Below the pieces are notes generated by a model. That model did not search any database. It saw only the letters and a program-made list of their open reading frames with translations, and was not told where the DNA came from. This document shows positions 1-63,950 of a DNA stretch of 64,000 nucleotides, in pieces. The position numbers and the translations under genes were made by a program. The stretch is from contig OX597823.1 in NCBI GenBank assembly GCA_951406725.2, forward strand, positions 96,968,001 to 97,032,000. The letters run 5' to 3'. This stretch comes from Octopus vulgaris. Taxonomy: Eukaryota. The first letter of the stretch is position 1. Each line of letters starts with the position of its first letter.

Positions 1-615
1 CTATTTACTCTCCAAAGGTTTATGGAAAAACTGGGGACTGCACCTCCTTATGGTACTTATTAAATCACACTCAAGATTTTAGTTAAGTGTGAAGGTTATG
101 GAATTACAGGCAATCATTGATCATTTAAGTATTAGAATTAGTGTCTTAATGTCTTGACCAACTGTTGCCTCTGAAATATTTATGTATATTCAACTAGCAA
201 TAAAACTCTTTGTATAACATTAATTAGCTATTTCATTGCATATTTACACACACATATGTGCGTGTGTGTGTTTATATATTGAAAAGTATAATGAATAAAC
301 ACTCCAATCGGTGAAAACAACTTTATATCATTCCCAAATTATCAAAAATCGAATATAAATGTATATTAAAAAAATAGGACACCCAATGGTAAGATGCAAC
401 AGTATAAAATATACACATATACACGACTAAAAGGTGATAAAAGCTAAAAGGGTAATACAAGTGAGGTCGAATGAAGGAAAATATATGGAATGCATAATAA
501 AGGCGACTAAAAATTGAAGGCAATGGTGCTAAAATGTTATAAATATATAAAAATACAAGAATATAAATATTTTAAAAAAGTGTAAGGTAACCAGAACAGA
601 GTCCATTCAAGCCCA

Positions 616-705
616 TCTCTACTATTGTTTCAAAGGATGCTGCTTCACATCGTTAATGTACAATCCATTAAGGAAATCCAAAGGCGACACCTTTTCATTA
701 GGAGA
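616..705 (-). ncRNA. Minimal type I hammerhead-like motif (PLE type), core G5A
   Basis: Minus strand reads TCTC CTAATGA AAAGG..(long insert)..CCTTT GAAAC AATA GTA GAGA; stems I and II pair. Confidence 0.6.
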
Positions 706-1349
706 AAACTTACAAATGCTTCACATTTCTGGTTATCTCATTGTTCAATTGCATAAAGCGACCAGACAAGTTCAGTTGAATGAAATTACTTTCCAGTTCA
801 ATGAAGTTATAAAATTCTCCTCTTTTACTCCCTGGCTCTTTGGAGCACGGCATATAGGTTGCAAAAGGAATAAACAGAGCTTCTAGGTCTATCAACCAAG
901 AACATTCCCATACCTTCAAGGAAAATATACATGGAGTCACTTATGCACATCATCATCGTTTAACGTCTGTTTTCCATGCTAGCATGGGTTGGACAGTTCG
1001 ACATGGGTCTGGGAAGCCAGAAGGCTGCACCAGGCTCCAGTCTGATCAGGCAGTTTCTACAGCTGGATTCCCTTCCTAACGCCAACCACTCCGTGAGTGT
1101 AGTGGGTGCTTTTTACGTGCCAAGGGAGGCTGGCAGTGGCCACGATTGGTTGGTGCTTTTTACGTGCCACCGGCACAGAAGCCAGTCAAGGTGGCGCTGG
1201 CATCAGCCACGTTTGGATGGTGCTTTTTACGTGCCACTGGCAAAGGTATCACAACTACAATTTCCATTTGATATTTATTTTGATGTTGACGTACTTGAAT
1301 CAATAGGTCTCCTCAAGCACAGCAGGTCATATGCCACCGGCACAGAACT

Positions 1350-3935
1350 ACCAATTTTATTAATAGACTGCGATGGCATGCTTTCTCTGGACGAAATCAA
1401 CAACGATCATTACCACAATATCTTGTAGTTGGGCTTGTTGGATAGGACCCAACCCTACTCTCCAAAGACTCCTCCCTGTCTTTTGAAGGACCATAAGCCA
1501 GACTTTATGTTGGATCCATCCGTTAGGTTGATCTGCCCAACGAAGTCAGACCTTAGCAGGATAAGTAAATGCATTATTGATCAAATTATTCCATTTGTGA
1601 GGAATAAAGTACAACTTCCATTATGGAATTCAAATGGTGATGTCATCCTTTGGTTCAACTCCCTCATGGTTTAGCAGAAGTTAAGAGTTGTCCAATTTGA
1701 GATCTCTAACTATTATAACTCAATTCCCCCAATTCTGTTGAATAAGGCTCTCATTTTTGCCTATAATTTTGTTGAAATCCCTGACTCAGATTTTGACATT
1801 GTATTTGCAGCAAGGGAGACCCTCATCTCTTTCAATGAACAATACTGGATGAGAAGTGACACTCCCAACCATTCTGATATTACGATGGGGTCTTCAGGTT
1901 CTGCACAGGTGACTGACCTAGTGGGCCTATATCTCCTTTCCGAAATTAAGGCTAATTTTCCCCTTTTGGATGGTGGTCTTTATAGGGATGATGCACTGTT
2001 TACCACATGTGGCCTTTCTAAGATGGCTCTTGAGAGATTGAGGAAGTCTTTGGGGTGACTCTTGAAAAACCAGTTTGGTCTTAGCACTGTATCCAACCCT
2101 AATTCTAGGATACTAAATTTATTGGACGTTACCTTTGATTTGAACACGGGTCTATTTTGCCCTTTTTATAAGCCTGATAAGTCCCTTCAGTATATCAATG
2201 CCTCATCAAACCATCCAAAATCAATGATAGATAGTATTGTCACTGCTATATTGATCAGGATGTCAAATCTATCAGCGAATGAGGAAATTTTTAATAAACA
2301 TGCACCAGAATACAATAATACCCCGGGCCTTAAGTGGGTTTAATGGGAAAATATTTTGAACCCCCAACACAAAGCTTAAAAATAAAATGACTGGTTTAAA
2401 ACCGGACCCAGATGTGTGATTCCATGGAAAACCCTCCGAGTTAATAGCTAATAATCGATATAAGCTGTTCATTAAGAATGGGTTTAGGAGGCCTAATGGA
2501 TTTATCACTAATAATGATATTGACAATAAAGCTGAAGTGAGTAGCTGTAAAAAATCCAGTCAAACTAAAAAGTCTAGAGTACGGAAAGTCATTTGATATG
2601 CTCCCAACTTTTCCCTTAAAGTCAGAAATTTGCCTAGTTTGTTTTTCAAAATTTTAGAGAAAAATTTCCTTGGCTGTGTGGTAAGTAGCTTACTTATGAA
2701 CCACTTGGTTCTGGGTTCAGTCCCACTGCGTGGAACCTTGGACAAGTGTCTTCTACTATAGCCTAGGGCTGACCAAAGCCTTGTGAGTGAATTTGGTAGA
2801 CAGAAACTGAAAGAAGCCTGTCGTATATATATATATGTTTGTGTGTCTGTGTTTGTCCCCACAACATCGCTTGACAACTGATGCTGGTTGTTTATGTCCC
2901 TGTAACTTAGTGGTTCGGCAAAAGAAACCGATAGGATAAGTACTAGGCTTACAAAGAATAAGTCTTGGGGTCGATTTGCTTGACTAAAGGCAGTGCTCCA
3001 GCATGGCTGCAGTCAAATGACTGAAACAAGTAAAAGAGATTTTCAGTCGAGTTTTCATACTTGGTAACACCAAACTTGGGGTTCATTATTGCTTCTTTGA
3101 ATAGAAGTAAAATAAATGGAAGGCATAATTTAGCACCTGTTGCAGGTGTATGTGCCAATAATAGGGTTAATAATCCAGGGGACAATGATGAATTATTGCA
3201 CTCTTCACTGCCTTCAGGTGTTGATGATTAAGCGCTTAGGAATGTTTCTGTAGGAGAAAATGTGGATCCTGTTAGGACCCCAAAATTTAGTTGGAATTTC
3301 AGAACCCCAAATTCATGTCCCCTTTAGGGGTTTTGCTTAAGAAAAAATATATTTTTAGAGGGGAGAATAATTTGTTAAGGGAATATATTGGGAGCACTAT
3401 TGATTTTTAGAAAGGAAATCTAGGGTCCACATGAGCTCATTTTTGAATGCCAAATACTCCAGTTCTACCATGTTGGCATCCTATATTCAAGATTTGAAGA
3501 GGAGGAATAATGAGTTATACTTTTGAATGGTCAGTCTTGTCCAAGCCCCCCACCCACCCACCACCACCACCACCACTTTGATGTTAATTTAAACAGATGT
3601 AGATTATGCCTAAGGGAATCGTACTTGATTCTTAAATGTTTTGAACCAAAACTCCTTCAAATATTTTCAGACTGGTCCTTTTTTGTAACCATAGGTTCTT
3701 CTCAACCTTCTTCAGTAGATACAAGGTAAAATTAAAATGAGATGCTTCAGGGGACCGCCTGAGCTGTGATCTTGAATTGAAACTGAGTAGAACCTGCAGC
3801 AAATTCTTTATCTTTGGAATGGACAATGGACTAATCCTTGCTTGAATCCACTGAATTCTTATTTTAACTTGTCTGCTTTATGCAAATGAACAATGTGATA
3901 ACCAGAAATGAGAAGCTTTTACCAGTGATAAGTAA
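1350..3935 (+). mobile_element. Decayed Naiad-type Penelope-like retroelement (RT + GIY-YIG), interrupted by a SINE
   Basis: LKDHKP..RLICPTKSDLSRISK, ITMGS, LYRDDAL, LDVTFDL, YINASSNHP, SYLVTPNL, CPL*GFCL, YIGST, HMSSF and CRLCLRE appear in the Naiad order, with stops and frameshifts. Confidence 0.85.
2670..3038 (+). mobile_element. tRNA-derived CORE-like SINE (octopus OR-type)
   Basis: A/B-box-like head (ggctgtgtggtaag / ggttcagtccc) and accttgg(a/g)caagtgtcttct core. Other copies at about 12128-12280(-), 14370-14525(+), 39035-39185(-), 40025-40160(-), 51645-51980(+), 62575-62705(-). Confidence 0.8.
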
Positions 3936-4059
3936 GTCTGTTATTATTGTTGGACTTTGTTGTACTTGTTTTGTCGAAGAACTTTGTTGCTGCTGTTTGT
4001 TTGTTTGTTTGTTTGTTTGTTGAGTGAAGCGGTCTTCATCCCAGAGTGGGAGAAGTCTG

Positions 4060-4386
4060 AAATGTGGTCTTTTGCTATTCATAAGACCCGCAGAAGAGAA
4101 AGCAGGTCAACCGCCGACACCGAGAGCATCGACGGATGGATGAATGCGCATCCAGGCTCAGCGGTTGTGTAGGAAGTCGGGGACAAGAAACAGGAAGAAA
4201 GAGTGAGAGAAAGTTGGAGCGGAAGAGTACAACAGGGGTTGCCACTCCCACCCACCCCTGCCAGAGCCTCGTGGAGCTTTAGGTCTTTTCACTCAATAAA
4301 CACACACAACGCCCAGTCTGGGAATCGAACCGTGATCCTCTGACCGCGAGTCCGCTGCCCTAACCACTGGGCCATTGTGCCTCCAC
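4060..4386 (-). mobile_element. tRNA-derived SINE (distinct family)
   Basis: Minus strand has A box TGGCCCAGTGGTTAGGGC and B box GGTTCGATTCCC, then a non-tRNA body and an (AAAC)n tail nearby. Confidence 0.75.
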
Positions 4387-4499
4387 ATTGTTGCTGCTTG
4401 CAGTATTTGTTGTTGATTCCCCCTTGCTTGAAAGGGGAACTATTATTATTTCTGTGGGGTTCCTTTATAACACCCCACCACCAAAAAAAAAATGAATAA

Positions 4500-6790
4500 T
4501 TGCTCCATTATGGAGAAGGAAATTGTGTTTTCTGCTTAAGGAGAAAAAGTTGTTAAGATCTGACAAGGAGTTTAGAAAAGATGTACCTCCTACCAAGGAG
4601 ATGGAAGACAAAAAAGATAAACCACCGAACATGCCAACTGTTTGAAAATGGACAATGAAACTTTGCTGCGGCTGCTGGAGTGGCCAGGAGAGATTTAAAA
4701 ATTGATAACATTGAGATGGAAAAATACAAACTAATGAAAAAAAGAGAGGGGCATCAATTGATAATATCGCCTCCCAGTGAAATTTTTAAAAAAGCAGAGC
4801 TATGTACAATAATATACAAAACAGTTATAAAAAATAAAAAATTAGACATGGCGACCAAAGAGGCTGTTGAAAAATGCCTGTGACCAGTGTGGCAGGACGT
4901 GGCATTCCTTGCAAGAGGGAAAAAGTTCGCCACTACAGAAGTGCAGCTTAACATGGAGGAAAAAGCCAAGCAGCACTCCACCAAGATGTTGAAAGCGTTA
5001 GAGGTGGTACTCCTGCCCACTTATCTGAGAAGATGTACTTCCAAGATAAGGGTGGGAGAGATTCCACTTGAGGTGGATCCTGCCTGGCTTGTGACAGCAA
5101 TAACGGTGGGCATGGAGGAGAAAATCACTATCCTCCAAGCTACAGTACTTGAACAACAAAATTGGCAGGGGCAGGAAATGGTAATTCAAGTGGCCCCTGC
5201 CGACCTAGAAGATATTGTCAACACCATCCAGGTGGGGGACAATAATCTGCATGTAAATGTCGAGGGGAGGAAGCCATGCTGTTATAAATGTGGACAAAAA
5301 GGACATTTTAGGTCCGAGTGTGATCCTCCCCCCGAAAAACAGTGACACCCCCCACCTCCCGTAAAGGCACCAGAATCTCAAAAAGCAACTGCACCCAGAC
5401 CAAGGACAACAACATCAGAGGCACTAAAACCAAGAACCTCCCAGGAGGAAGAGGAAACCATGGAAGACAACTTGAATTGGACTGTAGTAACAAGAAAAAG
5501 GAAGAATCCCCTTCCCACTCCCACAAGGCCCAGCACACCAAAAACGAAATTAACAACACAAAAACAAAATCCCTGCCCCAAGTCCCACCCTGATACAAAC
5601 CTAATGGTAATCAATGCCGCAAATACCATTCTATTAAAAAGAATAAGACATCCCCACAGCCATCCAATATCCAAAGGACACACCAGAAAAAATTAAAATC
5701 TATCAGATTGACAATTTAAATTACCTGAATCTAAAAATTGAATTCCAAATGATGTGGGCCTTCTGAGGAAGGATTTTTCCTCCAAAATTTATGAGGGCCA
5801 CGTCATAGAAACCTCACAAGTTCCGAGATAAATGGAACAACGTAAGGTATCCAAAATTTTTTATTCATGTTTACTCTCAACGTCAAATTGGAAACAAGGG
5901 CGTTTCCTCAATGATCTCAGGTCACATAAATTGGATGTGGTAGAAGTTACAGAAACCTGGCTGAGTGGACCAAGAAGCTTTTCTCCCCTCCTAAATAGCT
6001 ACAAGAAATTTATTTCTCCAGGCCAGCCTGGGGAGAGGGGGGAAGGAGGTCACAGTTTGGCTCAGGAAAAACCTGGGTTTTGAGACAAGAGTAATTTTTA
6101 TTGATCCGGAAGGCAGGCTGGTCATTCTTGATGTGATGTGCAGCAGTGGTAAGACTTTCAGACTGGTGGCTGTTTATGCACCCACCCCACCCCGAGGACT
6201 GGACAATCAGACTATTTTCGAGGCCTAGAGAATTTTCTAGGTACACCACACTTCTTATTGTTGTTAGGGGACTTTAACACGATCTGTGATGCATACATAG
6301 TGTTGGCTCAAACACGGATAGGGATGAAATCTGTGCCCCCTCGATCTGCTTAAGCATTTTCAGCTGGCAGGTCACTATAGACTAGAACACCCGGATGCTC
6401 CAGTGTAGACATGGATTAATAGTGACGGGTCTTCTATATCTTATATAGACAGGCTATTTGTTAGGCATATAAAGATTTAGTTAGGTGTCCACAATTCCAC
6501 TACGCCATTTACAGCAATCACAAGCTTGTGACCTGTAAGTTTGACCCAGGTAGGTTACGTAAGCAAGGTCCTGGCTACTGGGAACTCAACAAGTCTCTTT
6601 TGGGTGATGGCGAATACAGGAGTTGGATTAGGTTGTTAGTAATAAGGGCATTGACTGGTTCCATAAGCAATAACAAATGGTGATATGACCTCATAAGAGC
6701 CATAAAGTTTGAATCCATTAGATATAGTAAAGAGTTAGCCATGAGGAAAAATAGAATAGGAAGGGATTTAGAAGAGGCACTTAGGTCTTG
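4500..6790 (+). mobile_element. Tx1/L1-clade LINE 5' part: ORF1 zinc knuckle + AP endonuclease, truncated
   Basis: ORF1 has CYKCGQKGHFRSEC (CCHC). APE motifs VTETWL, GRLVIL, VYAPT, LGDFN, YIDR, SNH and GPGYWELNKSLL follow, with frameshifts. Confidence 0.88.
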
Positions 6791-7830
6791 CTCTACATTC
6801 TAAGTTTTAGTGGTGAGGATACTAATCGAGAAGAGGAAAGATCCAGAATTATGTGGACCAAACAACAGGAGTGGTTCCTAAACTACAAAAAGAACTATGG
6901 GGAAAAATCCATTATGAAAACAAAACCACCAAAACAAACGAAAAGATACAACAAACCAAGATCACAAACATATTGGACTCGCAGACATCTAAATAAACCC
7001 TACCAAACATAAACCAAAAACCCACTCCATACACTGCCGAACCCCCCAATAAACAGACACACAAAATATGAAATATGACCATCAACCCAAAACAAAGACA
7101 AACACACAGACAGCAAGACAAATACATACAACCAACAACCTATAACACTTGGAGAGAACGAACAGAATATGAACAACCACCAACACATAATGCTGGACAT
7201 CTTAAATGGATACACACACAGAACAATAGACAAGTAGATGGGAATCAACACATAACCTACTATAAACATTGAGGAAGTCCAAACCATATAAACATCAACT
7301 TCATGCGACCCCACAAATTTGCAAGATGGATAGAAAACAACCCCCACTATCAAAACAATACAAACACACATGAACCATTTCACTACCCACAAGGAAACCT
7401 GAACCCCAGGAATGGAAATTGGCCCAACAAACACAGAAGATGGGAAGAAAACAACTACCACAGACAAAACAACACATACAGACCACCACTACCTCTACAA
7501 GAAAACCTAAGACCTGAAAATGGAATTTGGAGATGCAACAACACAACCCTTTTTTTAGGGAAAGGATACTTCAACCATACTCCAGACCCAACACACCAAA
7601 TATTCTGAATGAACACACAAAACACATAGACCCCAAAATAATAAACCTATCTAAAAGAGAACTTAATGAAAATGAAATGAACCTACTACTAAAAGGCCTC
7701 AAATTTACACCCACATCCACTCCAAATCTCATAGAACTAAAAACTGATATAGACAACTTTAGCCGCCTCCGCCTTATGGAATTCTTTGAAAATAAGGAAA
7801 CAAGATAACTCAATCATAAGAAAAAAATCG
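6790..7830 (+). mobile_element. Penelope-like element N-terminal fragment
   Basis: INLSKRELNENEMNLLLKGLKFTPT (about 7640-7715) is the typical PLE pre-RT motif, preceded by N/Q/T-rich low-complexity coding. Confidence 0.75.
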
Positions 7831-8768
7831 TTAGTTTTGTTTTGTTTGTCACTCTTTTTATCTGTAATCACTTTTGGTCTCTGTTTTATCTGTTATCTAC
7901 TCTGCATATATAAACATACTTTGGTTTGTTGTGAAGAATACTTTAGCTTCAAGATATGACTTAATGCACGCATACGACCAGGAAGATGACTACAGCATGT
8001 TTGTGTTACCAAATGTTTGGATTTTGTTGTCCAAAGATATTATTAGCAAAAGCAGACAACATTAACTTTATCCATCAATCTAAACTTTCTGTTTGTTTTT
8101 AGGAAAAGCAATAACAACAAAAGTAACAGGAGCAAAAAAAATCTGATAAAAAATTATTATTTTTCAGTTATTTTCTGTTGGAGTTTTGCCTGTAAATAGC
8201 ACAACTGTCACTTCAACAAACCTGTGTTGCCTTTTCTGGTATGTGTGTAAGAATTTCTGCCTATGTACATAAGCCTGGAAATATAGAAAGCACCATTTGA
8301 ATGTGGTTGTTTCCAGTGCCACCTGACTGGCCCTTGTGCTGGTGGCACGTAAAAAGCACCATTTGAGTGTGGACATTGCCAGTTGCGCCTGACTGGCTCC
8401 TGTGCCAGTGGCACCATTCAAGTGTGGTCAATGCCAGTACCGCCTGACTGGCCCTTGTGCTGGTGGCACGTAAAAAGCACCCACTACACTCTCAGAGTGG
8501 TTGGCATTAGGAAGGGCATCCAGCTGTAGAAACCTTGCCAAATCAAATTGGAGCCTGGTGCAGCCTCCTGGCTTGCCAGCCGTCAGTCAAACCGTCCAAT
8601 CCATGCCAGCATAAAAAGTGGATGTTAAATGATCATGATGATAATGATTTAGGTAATAAATTGTATGGTATACACCTTTACTGGTAAATCACGTTCACTT
8701 TCTTAGTGATCATTGGGTATTTGATTAATGAGAGAGATGGAACATGGAAGATATGAGAATGTTTACTG

Positions 8769-8874
8769 ATCACTACAATTGTTTCGAACCATCTAGCATC
8801 GACCCCTCATGGGTGGGATACTGAACAACCAGTTTAAGAGTATCTATTGGTGTATATGTGTCTCTTCAGGTGAT
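8769..8874 (-). ncRNA. Minimal hammerhead-like motif with intact core and long stem II insert
   Basis: ATCAC CTGAAGA ... GAAAC AATT GTA GTGAT: 5-bp stem I, palindromic stem III (ACAATTGT) and a GUA site. Confidence 0.72.
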
Positions 8875-9037
8875 TACAAGATGTATCTCATTAAAATAAT
8901 GTCTATTCTGCAAGTTTTCTTCTTGTTGTGTGTAAACAAAAGCAACAAATTAAGGGATACAGCTTCATTATTATAGAAGATCAATAAAAATCAGATGCAA
9001 AAAGAAACAAATACACAATACAGCAAAAAAGTATTAA

Positions 9038-9143
9038 ATCACCTGAAGTGACACATCCACACTGATGGACACTTCTGGACCGGTTGTTAAGTATCCCACC
9101 CATGAGGGATCGTTGCTAAATTGGTTGAAATAATTGTAGTGTT
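9038..9143 (+). ncRNA. Inverted partner hammerhead-like motif, decayed
   Basis: ATCAC CTGAAGT ... GAAAT AATT GTA GTGTT; inverted copy of 8769-8874. Confidence 0.6.
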
Positions 9144-9268
9144 CAATAAACATTCTCGTATCTTCCATCTTCTGTTTCTCTCATTAATCAAATATATATA
9201 TACATCATCATCATTTATCATCTGTTTTTCCATGCTGGCATGGGTTGGACAGTTAACACACACATACA

Positions 9269-9760
9269 TGTTACATTGTGTTCTATACACAACATTTACC
9301 CGTTGACATAAATCTGTGTCACGGATGGGGAAGTTAACTAGTGTGCATTGATTGCTCGTTTCTTTGCTAGGTGTCTTCTCTACTTTGGACCCTCTCTGAG
9401 AGGACACCTAGCAAAGAAACGAGCAATCAATGCACACTAGTTAACTGCCCCATCCGTGACACAGATTTATGTCAACGGGTAAATGTTGTGTATAGAATAC
9501 AATGTAACAAATGCAACAAGTTCTATGTGGGTAGCACAACAAGACCATTACACATTTGCATCAAAGAACATCTGCACACGAGAGCCTCCTCCTTCAGAAA
9601 ACATCTGGACTGATGCCGGAACGCCATCAAAAGCATAACGGTCACAATTGAGGCCAATGAAAGAAATTTGGCTATTCTAAGAATTAAGGAAGCTATCCTC
9701 ATAGACAGACTAGGACCCCAAATTGACAACAGGCTGGTAGTTGGCAATCAATATATTATT
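9269..9760 (+). mobile_element. PLE GIY-YIG endonuclease fragment with inverted 5' duplication
   Basis: CQRVNVVYRIQCNKCNKFYVGSTTRPLHICIKEH...LRIKEAILI; arms 9269-9380 and 9398-9509 are inverted copies. Confidence 0.85.
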
Positions 9761-10151
9761 TAGCTACATCTGGATGCATGTAGGTTCATTTCTGATAACA
9801 TGCTCATGTATTATTTATAAAAAAAAACAGGAAACTGCACGTATAATACATAACTTAGAAGCAGCGCTGCAGATGTGCCAACAAACACGAGCTTGAGACA
9901 TGGCCGCCCTCATGCACTTCTCATGAGGAATTCTGGAAGGAGCTTCATGAGACCACTGCAGGGACGCTTCAGGTAAAAAAAATTTCAGTAACCACTGGAA
10001 AACTGATTATAGCAGTGACCTGATCAATTCCTAGCGATATCTGAAGAAAGAATTTTTATATTCCAAAATATTATTGTCTTTTTTTTTTGGAATTACAGAG
10101 ATATACTTGCATAGCGAGTGACTTGATCTGAGATTGTGTGCTGGAACGAAA

Positions 10152-10426
10152 ACAATTGCAGCGTGGAAGGTGTTTATAAGCCATTTAAGAAACACACAAA
10201 AACCGTTAGATTCACTTCAACATTTAAATTTAATTTGTCAAAATATTTTCGTCACTTTGAGACCGCAACCTATTCACAGACAAAGCTTCGTGCTGCATCT
10301 CATGTCAGTGAACAGGTTGCGGTCTCAAAGCAACGAAAATATTTTGACAAATTAAATTTAAATGTTGAAGTGAATCTAACAGTTTTTGTGTGTTTTTTAA
10401 ATAAACACCTTCCATGCTGCAGTTGT
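10152..10426. repeat. Inverted-repeat element carrying two variant hammerhead-like motifs
   Basis: Arms 10152-10282 and 10303-10426 with a 20-nt spacer. Motif reads TGTCA GTGAACA G GTTGC..GCAAC GAA AATATT T TGACA. Confidence 0.7.
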
Positions 10427-11828
10427 ATTATTATATCAGACTATGGATAATTAAATTATAACAGTTATTATAGTCCACTCTGCATTGTTGTGCCATTCAA
10501 GACATGTTATATTTTATAAACAATACACAATGCTTCAAGCAAACTACAATACTCTCATATAAGATTTTGTTGTCAAAGTTTAATCTGCAATAAATTGGTT
10601 CTGCTTCGACAATACACCAAATATTTTAATAATTTTTTTATATAATTTCTAATAATATTTAATTATGAAATTACGGTAGAATTTTTTAAACATCAATTGA
10701 CTATGAGGGTCCTCCTCATTAAAATAGGAATCAAAGGGCTCCAGAGGGGCAAAAATAGTTGAGGGCCACTGATCTATATACTTTCCCTCCTTCCTTCCCC
10801 CCACTCACTGCAAAATAGAGTGAAGAATAACTTGTCACTCAACAAGAGTGTTTACTCCATCTAATTCAGAGATAGAGTGTGAGTGTGAGTGAGACAGAGA
10901 GAGACACAGCCCAGTTTCCAACCCCTTTGCACAAAGACAATACAATGAACCACAGGCATCATCACGTTGTTCATTTACATATCAATACAGTACTTTTCTA
11001 TTTTATTTTTGTATCACCTGTTAATCAGCGAAAGTACTGAAGTAGTTTACCTGAAAATAGGTTTCTAAATAAATTTACATAATACATGCTTAATTTAACA
11101 TACATTATTATATCACATTCTGTTTCAGTACTACTTCACATTCATGACACTAATAATGCCTCCTCCTTCTCCTCTTCCCCTTTCTCCTCTCCCTGTGACT
11201 CATGCCATACAAACATGTTCATCATCATCATCATCATCATTGTTTAGTGTGCATTGTTCGTCTCTGTTAGGGCAATGACCTGGCAGAACTGTTACGACAC
11301 CACGAAAAGTGCATGGTGGCATTTGTTCTGATTTTGTGTTCTGAGTTCAAATACCACAAGGGTTGGTTTTTTTCCCTTTCACTTTTCCTGGGTCAATAAA
11401 ATAATTACCACTTGAGTGCTGGGGGTTGATGTAATCAACTTAACCTCCAAAAGCACCACCAGAATTGCTGGCCTTGTGCCAAAATTTGAAACTATTATTT
11501 GTCATCATCATCATTATCGTCATCATCATTTAACGTCCCTTTTTCCATGCTGGTTCACAGATTTAGAAAAACATTACATCATTGTCATCATCATCATCAT
11601 CATTTAATGTCCACTTTTCCATGCTTGCATGGTTCAGACAGGATTCGTTGAGGCACATTTTTGTATGACCAGATGCTCTTTCTGTCACCAACCGTCACCT
11701 CTTTCCGACCAAGGTCATATTCCTCCATGGCCAGTCACATGTTTCTATGCAGAAGATTGAAAAGGAACAACAGCGCTTGTATGACAGTGATGCTCGTTTA
11801 CAATCATTACAGGATTTTGAAACAAGGG

Positions 11829-12125
11829 CACACACACACACACACACACACGCACACACACACACAACACAAACACACACACACAACACACACACACAAC
11901 ACACACACCCACACACACATAACACACACAACACAAACACACACACACAACACAAACACACACAACACAAACCACACACACACAACACAAACACACACCA
12001 TACAAACACACACACAACACAAACACACACACAACACACACACACACACACAACACAAACACACACACATACGCACACACGGACATGTGCATACATGCAC
12101 AAACATACACATACAGGCATACATA
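11829..12125. repeat. Compound (CA)n/ACACA microsatellite
   Basis: Read directly from the sequence. Confidence 0.95.
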
Positions 12126-12558
12126 TAACAAGCTTCTTTCAGTTTCCATCTACCAAAATGCACTCACAAGTATTTGGTTGACCTGGGGCCATGGTAGAAG
12201 GTAGTTGCCTAACATGTCACTTAGTGGGCTTGAACTCGAGATGGCATGGCTGGAAAGCAAGCATCTTAACCATCACACAAGCACACCGGCACCATTTCTG
12301 GACAGAAAAGAGGAACACAAGACCTGGTGGAATAAAGATTCGAGATAAAGAGAAACAATCCTGGAAGAACCAATAATTGAAAGAATCCATGGGGCATTTA
12401 TTGGGCTCTGATAACCTCTGCATTAGGTCTAGAATTGAGTCGATCTTATAGCCTGGGAGGTTTTAATCCTTCATCATTCAGATAACCCTGCTGAATGGGT
12501 TATGTATTCATTCACGTTGCTTTGGATTAATCTTGCATTCTTTCTATAACTTCAAGAT

Positions 12559-12579
<21 letters not shown>

Positions 12580-12597
<18 letters not shown>

Positions 12598-12836
12598 GTA
12601 ATAGTAATAATAATGAAATTATTGTATACAGTGCTCAGGTGCACCACAACTTGTCAAAAGTGTGTATAAAGCATATGCAATAATGTACAAATGTCTGGGA
12701 AGTGAACAGTGTATGAGTCAGATACATGCTTGCGTGTGTATGGAGGGGAGAAAATCAGGTGAAGTGTTGGCGAATCTCAGGAAGCATGGAAGTTTTGAAG
12801 GATGCAGTGCTCCGACAACTAATAACTGATGCCGGC
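12580..12836 (-). mobile_element. CR1 LINE 3' end
   Basis: Near-identical to 17050-17275, with an (ATT)n tail. Confidence 0.85.
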
Positions 12837-12978
12837 ACACACACACACACAAGGGCACATCATCATTTTGATGATGTGGTTTATTTTACAGTGACATTGT
12901 TGGGCAGGTGTAAGAAGTCATGCCTTATTGGTTTGAATATAAAACAGGAAGAATATTTGGGCCAAATATGGCACTGTC

Positions 12979-13468
12979 TTAACCCTTTAGCATTCAGACG
13001 ACTCTGTCAAATGAAATGCTTATTTATTCACATCATTTTGAATTAATCAGGCCTTAATCTCATAGCTTCAAAATTTTGATGATGTGATTGTTTATTTTTA
13101 TGATGACATTGTAGAGTGGGTGTGAAAGGTCAGCTCTGGCTGGTTTGAACATAAACAAGTAGAATATTTGGGCCTGACGTGATTGGTTTAAATGCAAAAG
13201 GGCTAATTAACAAAGCAAGGCCATTAAGGGTCAGATCCTAAGGAAAATTAGCATTTAAACTGGCCATATCCAGCCCAAAATGGTCTACCTGTTTTATGGT
13301 CAAACTGGCCAGGTCTGGCCTCTCACACATACCTGACAATGTCATTTAAATCATAAACAATTACATCATCAAAATCCCAAAGCTACAAGATGACGCGTGA
13401 TTAATACAAAATAATGTGAATAGATAAGCTTCACATTTGACAGGTGAAGTTGAATGCTGAAAGGTTAA
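12979..13468. mobile_element. Two oppositely oriented piggyBac-like MITEs
   Basis: TTAA-CCCTTTAGCATT...AATGC(T/A)AAAGGG-TTAA type ends. Related copies at about 35265-35475, 50840-51000, 51484-51640, 54000-54170. Confidence 0.6.
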
Positions 13469-13619
13469 AGAACCTAATACCTTTAATTAATCATTCTACA
13501 AGACAATGACATATAAGAACTGGTTAAGTATCAAGTATTAAGTGTTACGGTTTCATTTATGGGCATCTGTTCAATCCAGTCTACTTGGCTGTAAATAAGT
13601 ACCAACTGGGTATTGGCAC

Positions 13620-13672
<53 letters not shown>

Positions 13673-13989
13673 GAGATTATTTAATAATAATAGTTTTGAT
13701 AAATAAAACCAAAAATTTTCCATTTACTTGTTTGGTTATTCAACAACTCAGCAAATAATATTTCCATAATTCTCAATTTTAAAGTGTGTTTCTACATATA
13801 ACATTATGGATACATTGATTGTGATAATAGAATAATCAGATGTACTTTGAGAGGAAACAGCTGGAATTTACCCTAATTACCTAGATCATATTTATATATA
13901 TATAATATATACATATATATATACCAGAGTAAGCACATAAATATGAAACAAGGTGAAGAAAATAGTACTCGAATACCAGAGGTAGAGTA

Positions 13990-14215
13990 ATATGCTTTAT
14001 TAATAAAGCTGCAAAAATATCATAAAAACTGTTACTCAGAGTTTCACATTCCTGTTCATCGGACAGTTTTGTTTAGAATGGAACAAAAATAAGGTTCTAA
14101 GCAAATATGTACAATTAGTTTGATAGATACACGTTTGAAAACTGTCCAATGAATGGAAACGTGAAACTCTGAGCAACAGTTTTTGCGGTATGTTTGCTGC
14201 TTTTTAATAAAGTAT
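13990..14215. repeat. Inverted-repeat element with paired minimal hammerhead-like motifs (14025-14070 on -, 14138-14183 on +)
   Basis: AAAACTGT CCGATGA ACA GGAA TGT GAAACTC T GAGTA ACAGTTTT: 8-bp stem I, 3-bp stem II, near-palindromic stem III; flanked by (TA)n. Confidence 0.75.
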
Positions 14216-14533
14216 ATATATATATGTGTGTGTGTGTAGATAGACAGATACATACATAAATTATGAGAATGGTTCTCTTAATGAACAAACTGAATAATGA
14301 ATGGTTTTCCTGAAGATAATTAAACTCACAAAACCAGCTAAGAATTGATCAGTGAACCATGAACAGTAATGGCTTTGTGGTGAGAAGCTTGCTTCCTAAC
14401 CAGATGGATCCAGGTTCAGTCTCACTGTGTGGCATTTTAGATAAGTGTCTTCTGCTATAGCCTCAAGATGATCAAAGCCTTGAGGGTGGATTTGGTAGAT
14501 GAAAACTGAAAGAAGCCAATCATGCATATACTG

Positions 14534-46534: not shown

Positions 46535-46573
<39 letters not shown>

Positions 46574-49500
46574 ATCAAAATAAGCAACAAAGATATCCAA
46601 GGTAGTGTAGTACAATTGTTTCATGCTACTTCATTTTATTAAACACTGTAAGTATTACATCAGTTTTAAAATGTTGAGCAATCTTCTACCATGGATATCT
46701 TTGTTGCTTATTTTGATTATAATCACCCCATTTGATTTATATGGATAATACCATACAAAATTCTGCTGCCTTTAACTTAAGTACCATATTCATCTGAATC
46801 TAAATTTTGCTGAACTTTCATATATATATATGGAATTTGTATCTTTGTATCTTTGTGGTACCAGTACCGGTGGCACACAAGAAAACCATCCGAACGTGGC
46901 CGTAGCCAGTACCGCGTCGACTGGCCTCTGTGATGTGGGCACATAACAAACACCATCCGATCGTGGCCGTCCGCCAGCCTCATCTGGCACCTGTGTCGGT
47001 GGCACATAAAAACACCAACCGAAGACCCGGCAAGACTAGTCAGGCCATAACCCGTGGCCCCTACTTGGGACGTTGTCAGTCCACCTGTGCATACCTTCCT
47101 TCTTGTGACAATTGTGAAAACCTAAAAACACCATCCGAGCGTGGCCGTTCGCCAGCCTCGACTGGCACCTGTGTCAGTGCCAGCCTCATCTGGCACCTGT
47201 GTCGGTGGCACATAAAAACACCATCCGAGCGTGGCCGTTCGCCAGCCTCGACTGGCACCTGTGTCGGTGGCAAACACTGCCAGATCTGACTGGCCTGGTG
47301 CAGCCTTCGGGCTCCCCAGACCCCAGTTGAACCGTCCAACCCATGCTAGCATGGAAAACGGACGCTAAATGATGATGATGATGATGATGATATTTCACTA
47401 AGGTATTGCAATGCTAATAACATAGTGCTAGGACTCAATATACATATGCTTTAGTACAATTGTTTTCCAAAATAGATTGTGCTTCTTGTTTGAAGCTCCA
47501 AGGAAGCTTTAAGGGGATACTCAAGCACTCAGCTATGAGGGCAGTGCACTTTGTAGCAGAAACAGCTTTAAGCTAATGGAGTTCATATCTTAATTGTTTA
47601 TTATATTTATATTCTCTACTAGCAGGGCCCATGAAAAATTCATGGAAAATATTAAAATGTAAGCATTTGTAAATTGTGTGCTGGTGCCATGAAAAATGTT
47701 TCTATATTGTGGCAGTTAAAGGCGGTGAGCTGGCAGAATCGTTAGCACACTGGGTGAAATGTTTAGCAATATTTCATCTCTTTACGTTCTGAGTTCAAAT
47801 TCTACCGAGGTCAACTTTGATTTCATCCTTTTGGGGTCGATAAATTAAGTACCAGTTGTGTACTGGGGTCAATCTAATTAACTGGCACCCTCCCCTCCAA
47901 AATTTCAAAACTTGTGCCTATAGTGGAAAAGTATATTGTGTAAAACTGATAACTATATAATCCAACCAAAATATTTAAGTTACGCAAACATAAACAGAAT
48001 TATTATTTAGCCTTAAAATACATCGTATATATTCAAAGAACCCGCTTGGTTTGGTGGTATGGAATGTTTTTCTTGTATTCTTTTATTTTTCTTATTTGTC
48101 ATTTGACGATGGCCATGCTGGAGCACCACTGTTTAGTCAAAGAAATTGACCCCTGGACTTATTCCCTGTGAGCCTGGTGCTTATTCTATCAGTCTCTTCT
48201 GCTGAGCAGCTAAGTTAAAGGGCTAAGTTACTGGCACAGGTGCCAGTAAGGCAACACTGGTAACGATCACACTCAAATGGTGCCTTTTATGTGCCACTGG
48301 CACGGAGGCCAGATAGCCGCTCTGACATCAATCACGCTTGGATGGTGCTCTTAATACCCTACTAGCACGGGACTCGAGTGCCAGTAAGGCGACGCTGGTA
48401 ACAATCACGCTTGAATGGTGCCTTTTAAGTGCCACGGTAATTAATTATATTGTAGGAAAGTAAAAATTAACGGGAAAAAATAGAATTAATATTTTTGATT
48501 TTGTTCAGTTCTATGAATTTTTTTTTTTTTAAATGCTTTTGTCAAGAAATTGGAAAAATCCTGACCAAAACAGAGAAATCCTAACTTAACAAAAATTATA
48601 AAATGAGAAAGTTGTATTTATTTCCACTATGCGACACTTATCGCACACACACATACATTCATATATGTGTGTGTGTCTTTTAGATTTTGTTTACTTGTAC
48701 ACATCAACAAATGAGCCAATTGAACAACTCTGTGTGGTTGTTCAATTTGCTAGAAATAACAGCCAAATCTCTCATACTATGCTCTTGTTAGTATTAAGGA
48801 AAGGGGAAAAATAGAACTAATATTTTTGATTTTTTTCGGCTCTATGAATTCAATTTTTTTTTTTCCAAATGCTTTCATCTGTTACTTGATACAAGAAAAA
48901 GAAATTGGAAAAATCCTGACCAAAAGAGAAATTAACTTAACAAAAAATATAGAAAGAAAAGGTTGTATTCAAAAGCCAAAAGTTGTTTTTTAGCTGAGGT
49001 GTAATTTTATAATTCAAACAAATTCAAAATTTAAATTTCAGAACATAAGACTTAACTTGCTATCTAGTGTATCGCTGAATTCAAATGGGTAGAAGGCTTA
49101 AAACAAATGTGTGTGTGGTTGGGCTTTTAATAACCAGGGATCAATTTCATTTCACTCATAGAAAGGAATTCAAATACCTACCAGCCACTTCCTCTCACTC
49201 TCTCTCTTTCTCTCACTCTCTCATCTCTCACTGCTTCTCTCCCTTGTTCGACACATGTGTCAAATTTAAGTATTTTAAATTTCTCATTAAGATTGTTGCT
49301 GCTTCGATGGCCCTGTAGGCATGGGTGTTGTGAAGTGGTAATACAATACATAGGCAGTGGTTTCAAATCTCTTCCAGAAATTACAAGATAGTTAAAAAAT
49401 TTTTATTTAAGCAACAAAATTTCAACAATTTCTTTTAAGGTGTGTTACATGCATCAGGTATATACAAAAAACAAATTGGCGTATTATTGATACTTGATAA

Positions 49501-52500
49501 TGTCTCTTTGACAATCAGACAAAAGGCTCAGCAGCATTTCTTTTGGTTCTCTGTCTTTTGAGATGAAATACTGCTGAAGTCAATTTTGCCAGTCTTCCTC
49601 TCAAGGTTGACCTGCCAAGTATTTGAGTTGATGTAATTGCCTAAACCTCTCCTCCTAAAACGACCGGCCCTGTGCCAATTATTGTTGTAACTGTTAATAT
49701 TTTATTATTCAGGTTCAAGTGAATTATGAAGAATCTACAGCAGCCTTTTTTTCTGTTGATATTATATCGAAAGAAACAGTTGTGTGGAAGATTGGTGGAA
49801 CTTCACAAGGGCATAACCCAACACTGCTCTATATTGGGAACAATTCTCACCTGACATGCCCTTTGACACTGAAAGACACCTTCTTGTTTTTCCCAATCAG
49901 TAAACAAACTGAAATCATTGAACAGTTAATTCGTAAGTAAATATTGGTCAGTTATAGTCTTTTTTTAGTCGTATATTTTTCAGTTGAAATTTCCTAACCA
50001 AGAACATTACTACATGGTTATGAGATTCAATTTGAAATTGTATGCTTTCAATTATGTACACTGTTTGTATTAGCCAGAGTGGTGTCTTCATCTTGATTAT
50101 TGCTTTCGCAACATTTTGGCTGTTGTACATTCCATTCTTCTTTTGGTGTCTTGTGTCAAACTCAGTTGTTGTAGCAGAATTTCAAACCTAACTCTTTGAT
50201 TCACAGAGGTACACTATTCTCATTTCACTCTCTGTGGAATGTATCAGAATTCTGATACAACAATTAAGTTCATGATAAGACACCTGAAGAAGGGTTGGCA
50301 CATACACAGCTGAAACATAATGAAAGCAACAATCATGATGAGGTTGCCAGTCTGACTAATACATAACATAAATTCTTCATCTCAGAAATATAGAATAGTA
50401 TTGTGTGGTTTTGAGGTCAATGTAGCTGAACAGCACCTTGCACAAGGGCCTTTTGCTTCACACTTGGTTTCAACAAAACTTTCATCATTTAATGTCCACT
50501 GGATTTTTATTTTTTGCAGGGCTGGGGCTGATTTAATTCTTAACCACACGGCTATTTCTGCATGAAAATTGGTGTATTTAATCCATTACTTGTTTAGAAA
50601 CCTACTGCCTGGTCCTTAGATATCCCTTTAGCAGATTTCACTTTTAGGCTTCGCTCTTAGTCTCTGAATTTCTTATCTTTTGAGGAAAAAAGAAAAAAAG
50701 CATAAAGAGTCGTGAGTATTGTTGTTACACCTCAAAGTCATGCAAAAAGAGTAAAAAATGATATTAAAAAGAACAAAGATCTATAACTGATGGTCATTTG
50801 GTCAATTAGCATCTGTATTAGAAATGAAACCTTTCACACTTTAACATTTAAACCAGCTGTAATTCAGCTAAAATAATTATCTTCAGAACCAACCTGATCT
50901 GGCCTCTCAACTTACTCTGCAATGTCATTCTAAAAATAAACAGTCATGTCATGGAAATCTTAAAGCTACAAGTTAATGTGCATTTAAAGTAATTTAAATT
51001 TAAACTTTTAATCAAAATTCAATGTTAATTTATGTTCCAAACACCAGCTTCATAGGGGCAATGTTATTTTACTAAATTCTTCATTGAGTTCAAAATTAAT
51101 TGAAACGAAGTTAGTGTGTTTCAACAGAAATATAACAAAAGTTATAACTAAGTTTATGGGCAGTTTTGTATGTAAATACAGTGAATCCCAGACGACATCT
51201 TCCAATGATGGTAAGGTGCGAATTAACCCTTTTGATACCAACCCACCGGGGACTCTCCCTGGTTCTGTAATACAAACTTGTTTTAAAGTGATTTAAAGTA
51301 AAAACCTAAAATTTCATCTTCTGTTCCAAACACCAGCTTAATGTACACAATTCTTTATTTTCAAAATTGAAATAAAGGAAGTTTCAACAGAAATATGGTA
51401 ATAAAAAGGTTCAGCAGATAGCGAGAGGCATCCAATGATACGGTCACAGATAATGGGAAACTTGGGCCTACTGCTGAGACAACTTAACTCTTCAGCATTC
51501 AGATTGCTTATTTGTTTACATTGTTTTGAATTAATCATGCATTATCCTGTATCTTTAAGATTTCAATGATGTGATTGTATAGTTTTAGGACATTGTAGAG
51601 TATGTGTGAGAGAACAGATCTGGCGGGTTTTAAGATATATATAGGCGTGGCTGCATGGTAAGAAGCTTGCTTCCCAACCACATGGTTCCGGATTCAGTTT
51701 CAATGTGTGGCACCTTGGGCAAGTGTCTTCTGTTATAGCCTCAAGCTGACCAAAGCCTTTTGAGTGGATTTGGTAGGCAGAAACTGAAAGAAGCCTATTG
51801 TGTGCCTGTTTGTCGTCCACCCCCACCATCACTTGCCAACCGATGTTGATGTGTTTGTTCCCATAACTTAGCAGTTCAGCGAAAGTGATCAACTAGGTTT
51901 ACAAAGAATAAGTCCTGGGGTCAATTTGTTCGACTGAAGGTGGTGCTCCAGCATGGCTACAGTCAAATGATTGAAACAAAAGAATATATATATATGGACC
52001 TCACAGAGGCAAAGTGGCTGAGTTCTTTTTGTGTGTTGGGCCTCACAGAAGCAAAGTAGCTGAATTTCTTCCAAGTGTTGGGCCTCACTCAGGCCTCACT
52101 TTTTATTCAGCTTGGTAGCTTACCATAACACTAGTGTTTTTCCCCCCCCCCCAGTCACTGCTTTCCTTTATCGGTTGTCCTAGTGTGCAGCCAGCAGTGG
52201 GTGTGTGCTAGTGACAAGGACCAAAGAGGCCAAAATGTACACTTAACATTCTCACCTCTGCTAGTGAACAATTTTCATCTGCTACTAATATATTTCGTTT
52301 TTAAACACAGTGAGTTCATAAGGGATGTCATCTCCAGGTGAATGCTAGTTCGTTTACTTTTTTTTTACATGTAATACAGGTAGCTTATGTTATTTTATCT
52401 TTATCATTTAATCTTCTTCAGAGAAACAAGATGTGTGTGGAAACTCTCTGTCTTCTATAATTATGCCACATGAAAAGAAAAATGAAAGCTGGTGTGTTAT

Positions 52501-63129: not shown

Positions 63130-63950
63130 TTAAAGGAAATTGCAAATGAATTGCTAAGATTAGCAAGGAAAGTCAAACAAAGTAAAATATTTGAAAAAAC
63201 TCCTATAGTGGTTAACTGGCTCCAGAATTTCACTGGCATTTCAAAAGTGTTGCATGAAAGTTACCAGCATGTTGCAGAAAAATATCCTTGTTTCAAACAA
63301 ATATTCCCTCAGCTGCCTATTGTAGCCTTTAATTAGTATAAAAATATAAGGGAACTATTAACCACTACTTCTGACATCAAGAAAAGTAACATTGGAATTT
63401 CTGAACACCGTATCTTGAAAAAATGGCTGCAACAGAGGTAATGAGTCAAGTCAATTCCGTTAAGAATCATAGCAGAAATGTTATAGTTTATACAGAAGGT
63501 AGGGTGTGTGGAGATCCCCATTTGCTGTGCTCAGCCGAATGCACCCAACACAACTTGATTTACATTGGTTATACAGCAGAACAATTGAACAAAAAAGATT
63601 CAGTGGGCACAAGTATGATGTCAAGCACAATATTAGTTGTTTGACAGAACTTGCTGAACATTTTACATCAATGGCTGCAGTTTTGAAAAAGACCTGGAAG
63701 TGCATATTCCCAGAAAATATTCTGAATTTACTTTCAGTCCTCAAAATGCACGAGGAGTATTATGTGAGTTATTAACATTACTCCCTGAAGGAATGAACAA
63801 AATGAAAAGGGAATTTCATTGTATTTACTCCAAACTGTTTGATTAAATGTTCTTTTTCTTTTTTTCTTTTTGTTTTTGTCAGTTGTAAAATTGAAATTTG
63901 AAGACTGATGATGTCATTCCTTCAAAGTGGGAATGCAGGATCTCCTCATT
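63130..63950 (+). mobile_element. PLE 3' fragment (GIY-YIG) followed by a decayed hammerhead-like motif
   Basis: IFPQLPIVAF, CTQHNLIYIGYT..LNKRFSGHKYD..ELAEHF, EEYYV and PEGMN; GAAGA CTGATGA plus a hairpin at 63900-63940. Confidence 0.78.

Follow-up and report, generated by a model that had tools for sequence, protein, structure and literature searches.

Insertions of Penelope-like elements (PLEs) that encode an endonuclease (EN+) combine a head-to-head inverted copy and a one-sided tail with AT- or TA-rich targets, flanking duplications of variable length and microhomology at the junctions, as described for Penelope and for Pen2a of Adineta (PMC3846280, PMC8557442). PLEs carry hammerhead ribozymes in their pseudo-long terminal repeats (pLTRs), with a palindromic helix III and an extra base between positions 9 and 10.1, and both dual opposite-strand hammerheads 100 to 700 bp apart and a family with a U3-A8 covariation have already been reported in them (PMC4209133). 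Related to PLEs are the non-LTR retrozymes, which are short, lack an open reading frame (ORF), bear canonical type I hammerheads and form head-to-tail tandems (PMC7229834; 10.64898/2026.07.22.740005). The PLE protein PAc cleaves and extends both DNA strands, reverse transcription starts internally, at two sites by which the tail is defined, and insertion in vitro is independent of hammerhead cleavage (PMC11167929). The origin of the head-to-head repeats of PLEs and the role of their hammerheads are given as open questions (PMC3846280, PMC8557442, PMC11167929). Here, we analyzed three hairpin-like inverted repeats with hammerhead-like motifs (elements 1 to 3) and a fourth such motif at 616-705 in a 64,000-nt stretch of the Octopus vulgaris genome (contig OX597823.1, positions 96,968,001 to 97,032,000, forward strand; below, the window).

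The octopus insertions share all of the listed features of EN+ PLE insertions and show variable 5' truncation with an inverted partner and an optional one-sided tail. They differ in that many of them consist of two pLTR stubs only, with a nearly fixed start, and in that the tails are longer (57 to 80 nt here, 30 to 40 nt in the insertions described). The initial annotation had proposed that the hairpins are ORF-less ribozyme elements mobilized by PLE proteins in trans. In our analysis, each hairpin is very probably a pair of head-to-head 3' ends of a long family with a decayed reverse transcriptase (RT) ORF, built in a single insertion by an EN-bearing PLE and not copied as a unit. This origin is supported by ORF-bearing long parents, the one-sided tail, AT-rich targets and, in two of the families, a pileup of 5' ends just upstream of the hammerhead.

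The four motifs proved to be the 3' ends (pLTRs) of four different long repeat families, which we call F0 (motif 616-705), F1 (element 1), F2 (element 2) and F3 (element 3). By motif inspection, the long copies have a decayed ORF, colinear with the hammerhead in every family, in which RT precedes a GIY-YIG-type domain. Elsewhere, copies of elements 1 and 3 run upstream beyond the supposed spacer, up to ~1 kb; what had been annotated as a distinct spacer is, in these two elements, ordinary element body. ORF-bearing parents were found for F1 (loci L262 and L263) and F3 (L264). The F0 RT in the window matched the F1 RT at 43-46% by tblastn, and the F0 body is colinear with L093 and L110, both of which run into the F0 hammerhead. 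We rejected the possibility that F2 has no long form because ~15 of 100 full-start copies among the matches listed (306 total) share an upstream extension that leads into an RT-endonuclease ORF; L144 is a long F2 copy within the core-motif sample described below. Atlas leads for the parent ORFs pointed to HTH_animal, RVT_1 and GIY-YIG clusters. The F2 parent, with an RT, then a GIY-YIG-type EN, a CX2-5CxxC linker and a cysteine pair within the core, resembles the Neptune/Nematis-type C-terminal EN+ PLEs, whereas the F0, F1 and F3 parents resemble the Hydra type, F1 and F3 lacking the inner cysteine pair as described for Hydra (PMC8557442); both are motif-only assignments, and all octopus copies seen are decayed. 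The PLE origin suspected in the initial annotation thus held up, with arms that match ORF-bearing long copies in every family.

To sample F2, we searched with a 27-nt core motif (1,824 exact matches; reversed control, 0) and analyzed 68 loci from among the first 100 listed, which were reduced to 40 events by collapsing 29 loci with the same junction. F2 was solo in 23 events and had an inverted partner, starting anywhere in positions 2 to 129, in the other 17, with both cores kept in 7 of the 40. The F3 sample comprised 29 events from 30 loci, 14 of them inverted and 11 with both cores. Outward-facing pairs therefore recur across unrelated families, as annotated, and they do so because most copies start just 5' of the hammerhead. 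In the pooled samples, 75 of 149 short F2 arms began within reference positions 36 to 40, with the fixed point at 37, and 23 of the 29 F3 events, one of them in fact a longer copy of a subfamily, began no more than 30 nt from C3. In 24 of 36 solo copies, counted by hand among the 100 of 306 matches listed, the fixed start follows a G that is absent from the F2 parent. Copying of the 5' cap by RT yields an extra G in other retroelements, and by analogy the G before the F2 start is likely cap derived. We did not find a fixed 5' start of PLE stubs in the literature.

That the hairpin of arm, spacer and arm moves as a unit is, in our view, very improbable. All 40 scored matches to element 2 span both arms, as a mobile hairpin would predict, but these top matches were selected for spanning; no more than 2 of the 39 further scored matches to element 1, and likewise to element 3, reach across both arms, and their breakpoints differ. 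Also in line with a mobile hairpin, both arms are near full length in 3 of 5 incidental F2 insertions. The one junction that recurs, at 29 of the 68 sampled F2 loci, does so because ~1.5 kb of flanking DNA (92-97% identity) was amplified along with the hairpin. By comparison, the best 29 F2 hairpins have 29 distinct junction strings, some differing only by point changes. In 16 of them the tail-bearing arm has the shorter 5' end and in 10 the longer (equal, 2; no tail, 1), there are zero fixed differences between the tail arm and the non-tail arm, and arms of the same locus share 29 nonconsensus variants against a mean of 10.5 under permutation (0 of 2,000 permutations). The amplified group served as a control: 15 of its 29 loci have one junction, a constant tail side and fixed arm differences. 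Whole hairpins are bounded by 10- to 14-bp duplications at L067, L068, L080, L081, L083 and L086. The locus-specific junctions, unfixed tail side, shared arm variants and duplications around whole hairpins make it most likely that every hairpin arose by assembly during its own insertion. With breakpoints that vary from locus to locus and ORF-bearing long copies for every family, the idea of a hairpin element fails in the samples examined, by the refutation criterion of the initial annotation, and the hairpins are ordinary PLE debris.

A SINE-like (short interspersed nuclear element-like) origin, in which a monomer of ~150 nt plus tail would be transcribed as a stub and reinserted by the parent protein in trans, is improbable, if less so than a mobile hairpin. 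Stubs far outnumber long copies (the ~15 of 100 listed full-start copies that extend upstream), they retain the tail priming site, the family sequence is abundant in contigs of putative RNA runs, and nonautonomous PLE derivatives are known (PMC8557442; 10.64898/2026.07.22.740005). However, the stubs lack the upstream part of the pLTR that would hold the promoter, and no variant separates the short from the long F2 copies (149 short and 37 long arms, pooled samples), which carry the same polymorphisms; stubs thus appear to come from the transcripts of the parents and not from a separate short lineage. Head-to-tail neighbors, in the arrangement of retrozyme tandems, were flagged at only 1 of 68 F2 loci: the octopus copies, which have the shortness, absence of an ORF, type I hammerhead and PLE relationship of non-LTR retrozymes in common with them, are instead dispersed solos or head-to-head pairs with ORF-bearing parents. 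Least credible of all is that element 2 is a miniature inverted-repeat transposable element (MITE) or foldback DNA transposon with a chance likeness to a hammerhead. The near-perfect 280-bp palindromes, their high copy number and frequent location in TA runs, the blank Rfam result and a fold z-score of only -1.5 would suit such an element; against it, solos outnumber hairpins (23 of 40 events), the tail is one-sided, long copies lead into an RT-endonuclease ORF, and every other core position, like the extra base at 9/10.1 and the palindromic stem III, agrees with the consensus of PLE hammerheads.

Under assembly at insertion, the element protein would cut both strands of an AT-rich target, and each of the two target ends would serve as a primer for copying RNA of a single source copy by RT, in one case from the tail site and in the other from the pLTR end. 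A short complementary DNA (cDNA) that stops at the RNA 5' end would result when the tail site of the upstream pLTR is used; the cDNAs would mostly reach this end, probably a capped start in the pLTR ~8 to 25 nt before the core, and two cDNAs from opposite target ends would join head to head into a hairpin. Because the two cDNAs terminate at nearly the same position, near-perfect palindromes could then recur without a lineage. Copying of each arm from RNA would more readily account for tails on the arm whose 5' end is shorter. Alternative routes are possible, by self-priming on an antisense template, as proposed for PLE inverted repeats (PMC3846280), or by snap-back of one cDNA. A bolder version, which we hold only tentatively and would not bet on, is that the stubs are strong-stop-like PLE cDNA, running from the tail site to the capped 5' end and made twice per insertion, and that in addition the F2 hammerhead, present in thousands of copies, is active. 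If true, the twice-made cDNA would explain how PLE inverted repeats form. The fixed start, the likely cap-derived G, the tails on either arm and the shared arm variants translate directly into predictions for the PLE system available in vitro.

Several points weigh against assembly at insertion by a PLE. Pfam, homolog and PDB searches on the decayed parent ORFs gave no significant match, no intact ORF was seen among the long copies of the families examined, and the protein identity of the parents is a putative one, based on motif inspection and Atlas leads. The motif-selected samples come from contig C1 only and favor young copies. The variants shared between arms could also stem from later gene conversion. 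Flanking duplications were longer than in permutations (mean of 10.8 versus 6.8), a statistic that TA runs inflate, and the three insertions in the window have no clean flank duplication. F1 copies mostly extend further upstream (12 exact matches, by eye). Finally, the F2 fixed point fits an initiator-like start but also resembles a branch point with a splice acceptor; the pLTR of Penelope holds both its start site and an intron whose end is at helix I (PMC8557442, PMC4209133). No run holding the family is recorded as RNA, and the contigs of four putative RNA runs contain the family sequence without showing ends. No common spliced leader was present in these contigs or in the listed F2 copies, so a start site is favored over a splice acceptor, and on the sequence at hand we lean modestly toward a transcript start.

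Next, we looked into the hammerhead motifs. A strict type I descriptor had one match in the window, the left arm of element 1, and none in each of 10 shuffles; this arm holds the only unmutated canonical core in the window hairpins. A relaxed descriptor gave 5 matches versus 0 to 7 in shuffles, and one allowing 3-8 variants gave 3 versus 0 to 3 in 20 shuffles. As the relaxed counts lie within the range of the shuffles, a motif taken singly does not exceed chance expectation on window data alone, and the motifs were established by family alignments instead. An Rfam scan of the window returned no hammerhead among 64 matches at E<=5, and single-motif folding z-scores were not significant. The F0 majority sequence has the canonical CUGAUGA, a palindromic stem III, a GUA site and a 63-nt stem II region; that of F1 has a canonical core and a 77-nt stem II region, the motif in the long arm of element 1 having a palindromic stem III. 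The annotation of the motifs as minimal hammerheads is therefore only partly correct, failing for element 1 and the F0 motif. These long stem II inserts are common to each whole family, and Rfam missed both. The F3 core has U4C in 24 of 29 copies (by eye), and the motif of element 3 has a 3-bp stem II and a near-palindromic stem III. Relative to their own families, the cores are mutated in the right arms of elements 1 and 3, the left arm of element 2 and the 616-705 copy. The octopus motifs thus share with PLE hammerheads the pLTR location, the palindromic helix III and, in F2, the extra base between 9 and 10.1, and differ from them in the long stem II regions (63 to 77 nt) of F0 and F1, the U4C of F3 and the 3-8 pair of F2 (PMC4209133). 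As the initial annotation had reasoned, the motifs of a hairpin lie on opposite strands and are unable to dimerize in cis, and read-through RNA is predicted to fold into a long hairpin (95 to 182 pairs), for which nothing suggests selection. If active, the hammerheads would work in the parent transcript, as a dimer or with the help of protein, and not in the hairpin.

The majority sequence of F2 has GUGAACA (G3-C8) instead of CUGANGA, an extra G before a 5-bp stem II, a palindromic stem III and a UUU site; in the right arm of element 2, the G3-C8 core begins at 10308. In samples selected independently of the core, G3-C8 occurred in 54 of 59 arms of the top hairpins, 15 of 17 tail-selected arms and 6 of 7 incidental arms, and the core-motif search puts the number of such copies at at least 1,824. 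A Watson-Crick 3-8 pair, stems I and II, G10.1-C11.1, the extra base at 9/10.1 and the palindromic helix III are all present. Hammerheads with a single mutation at these positions are inactive, whereas C3G/G8C together restore part of the activity, also in a PLE hammerhead. Natural 3-8 covariation has been reported as U3-A8 (PMC3088659, PMC4209133); for G3-C8, we found only an engineered variant in the literature (PMC3884650), and the supplements of these papers could hold a natural example. Several results count against function. Among 100 listed of 132 near-matches to the canonical version, 89 were G3-G8, 8 C3-C8, 2 C3-G8 and 1 U3-G8, which shows that a subfamily with a broken 3-8 pair has spread, and no canonical C3-G8 sister family was found among them. 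Less decisive is that no clear pileup of 5' ends appeared at the predicted F2 cut: by eye, the 100 matches listed (3,440 total) comprised 33 passenger arms, 56 that kept the core and 11 starting within the 50 nt shown, and only 3 of these 11 lay near the cut, one via microhomology. The F2 motif is thus at most a candidate self-cleaving variant of the PLE hammerhead; if true, a natural G3-C8 core would broaden the descriptors of hammerheads, by which F2 is missed. What may be new here is the swapped G3-C8 core and the population of stubs with a fixed start; inverted pLTRs and opposite-strand pairs were already published.

Some F2 copies were amplified with other DNA or, apparently, locally. Long F2 copies with a G3-G8 core and a loop variant cluster on contig C16 at ~0.6 to 10.6 Mb (for example, L271, L273, L285, L298, L299), and C16 holds ~43 of the 89 listed G3-G8 near-matches (by eye), which suggests local amplification of the broken-pair subfamily. 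The 29 C1 loci with the common junction (L118, L119, L129, L130, L131, L140, L142 and 22 more) belong to a composite repeat, young and at least 1.5 kb long, in which one F2 hairpin is a passenger. This repeat ends in a hairpin plus CTAG, which we take to be a Helitron-like 3' end. When an ORF was sought past the F2 tail, no shared continuation was seen in the 100 copies listed (209 total), except at L165, L175 and L176, where ~0.7 to 0.9 kb is common on both sides (73-84% identity); these three are an older F2 insertion amplified inside another repeat.

The features of the window that belong to the four families are collected in Table 1.

Table 1. PLE-derived features of the window (positions count from its first nucleotide)
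Feature	Position	Strand	Remarks
F0 3' end (pLTR region) containing the 616-705 hammerhead	273..772	-	matches F0 loci over 273-753
F0 hammerhead, type I, 63-nt stem II region	616..705	-	window copy G5A
F0 decayed PLE body	1471..3920	+	RT 1471-2319, EN-like remnants; ends just before its own hammerhead
Element 1 tail, one-sided	8649..8717	-	
Element 1 long arm, 5'-truncated F1 copy	8718..9039	-	hammerhead 8769-8874, predicted cut after 8774
Element 1 inverted partner	9037..9194	+	start ~4 nt ahead of stem I; decayed core; terminal TA run
Element 2 tail, one-sided, ~57 nt	10093..10151	-	
Element 2 tail-bearing arm, F2	10152..10300	-	begins at F2 fixed 5' point; core decayed (G3-U8)
Element 2 inverted partner	10303..10429	+	hammerhead-like motif 10303-10350, predicted cut after 10344
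Element 3 tail, one-sided	13908..13989	-	
Element 3 long arm, F3	13990..14141	-	hammerhead 14025-14070, predicted cut after 14033
Element 3 inverted partner	14138..14217	+	start at stem I; decayed core; terminal TA run

Our analysis confirmed the three annotated inverted repeats, with their arms and outward-facing hammerhead-like motifs, and the placement of two of them beside (TA)n, as TA runs adjoin elements 1 and 3. The arms were delimited correctly and the ends were not, the one-sided tails having been left out. The arm pair of element 1 (8718-8875/9037-9194) has 83% identity. The 616-705 motif, annotated as solo, sits in an F0 3' end on the minus strand, with a body of the same family on the plus strand; positions 714-772 have an inverted counterpart at 3866-3920, and the minus-strand 3' end is likely the inverted 5' partner of this body, into which a common short repeat is inserted at 2671-3040.

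Four partial motifs had also been annotated, and by eye they fared differently: the one at 46611 stands as the 3' half of a motif, those at 50281 and 57367 look decayed, and that at 63901 is the CUGAUGA heptamer only and was dropped. The first lies in a small inverted repeat at 46570-46721 (46570-46605/46686-46721) by a TA run, with the hammerhead 3' half on the minus strand, which is probably a stub of a fifth PLE family. The motifs at 50281 (plus strand) and 57367 (minus strand) belong to other families, and the latter retains a palindromic stem III and GUA. Two inverted repeat pairs with copies 1.3 to 1.5 kb apart, 17028-17434/18952-19357 (94%) and 61351-61537/62828-63013 (89%), are possibly ends of DNA transposons. 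A further palindromic repeat lies immediately to the right of element 1 at 9241-9509, with ~9255-9380 mirrored at 9400-9510 (by eye).

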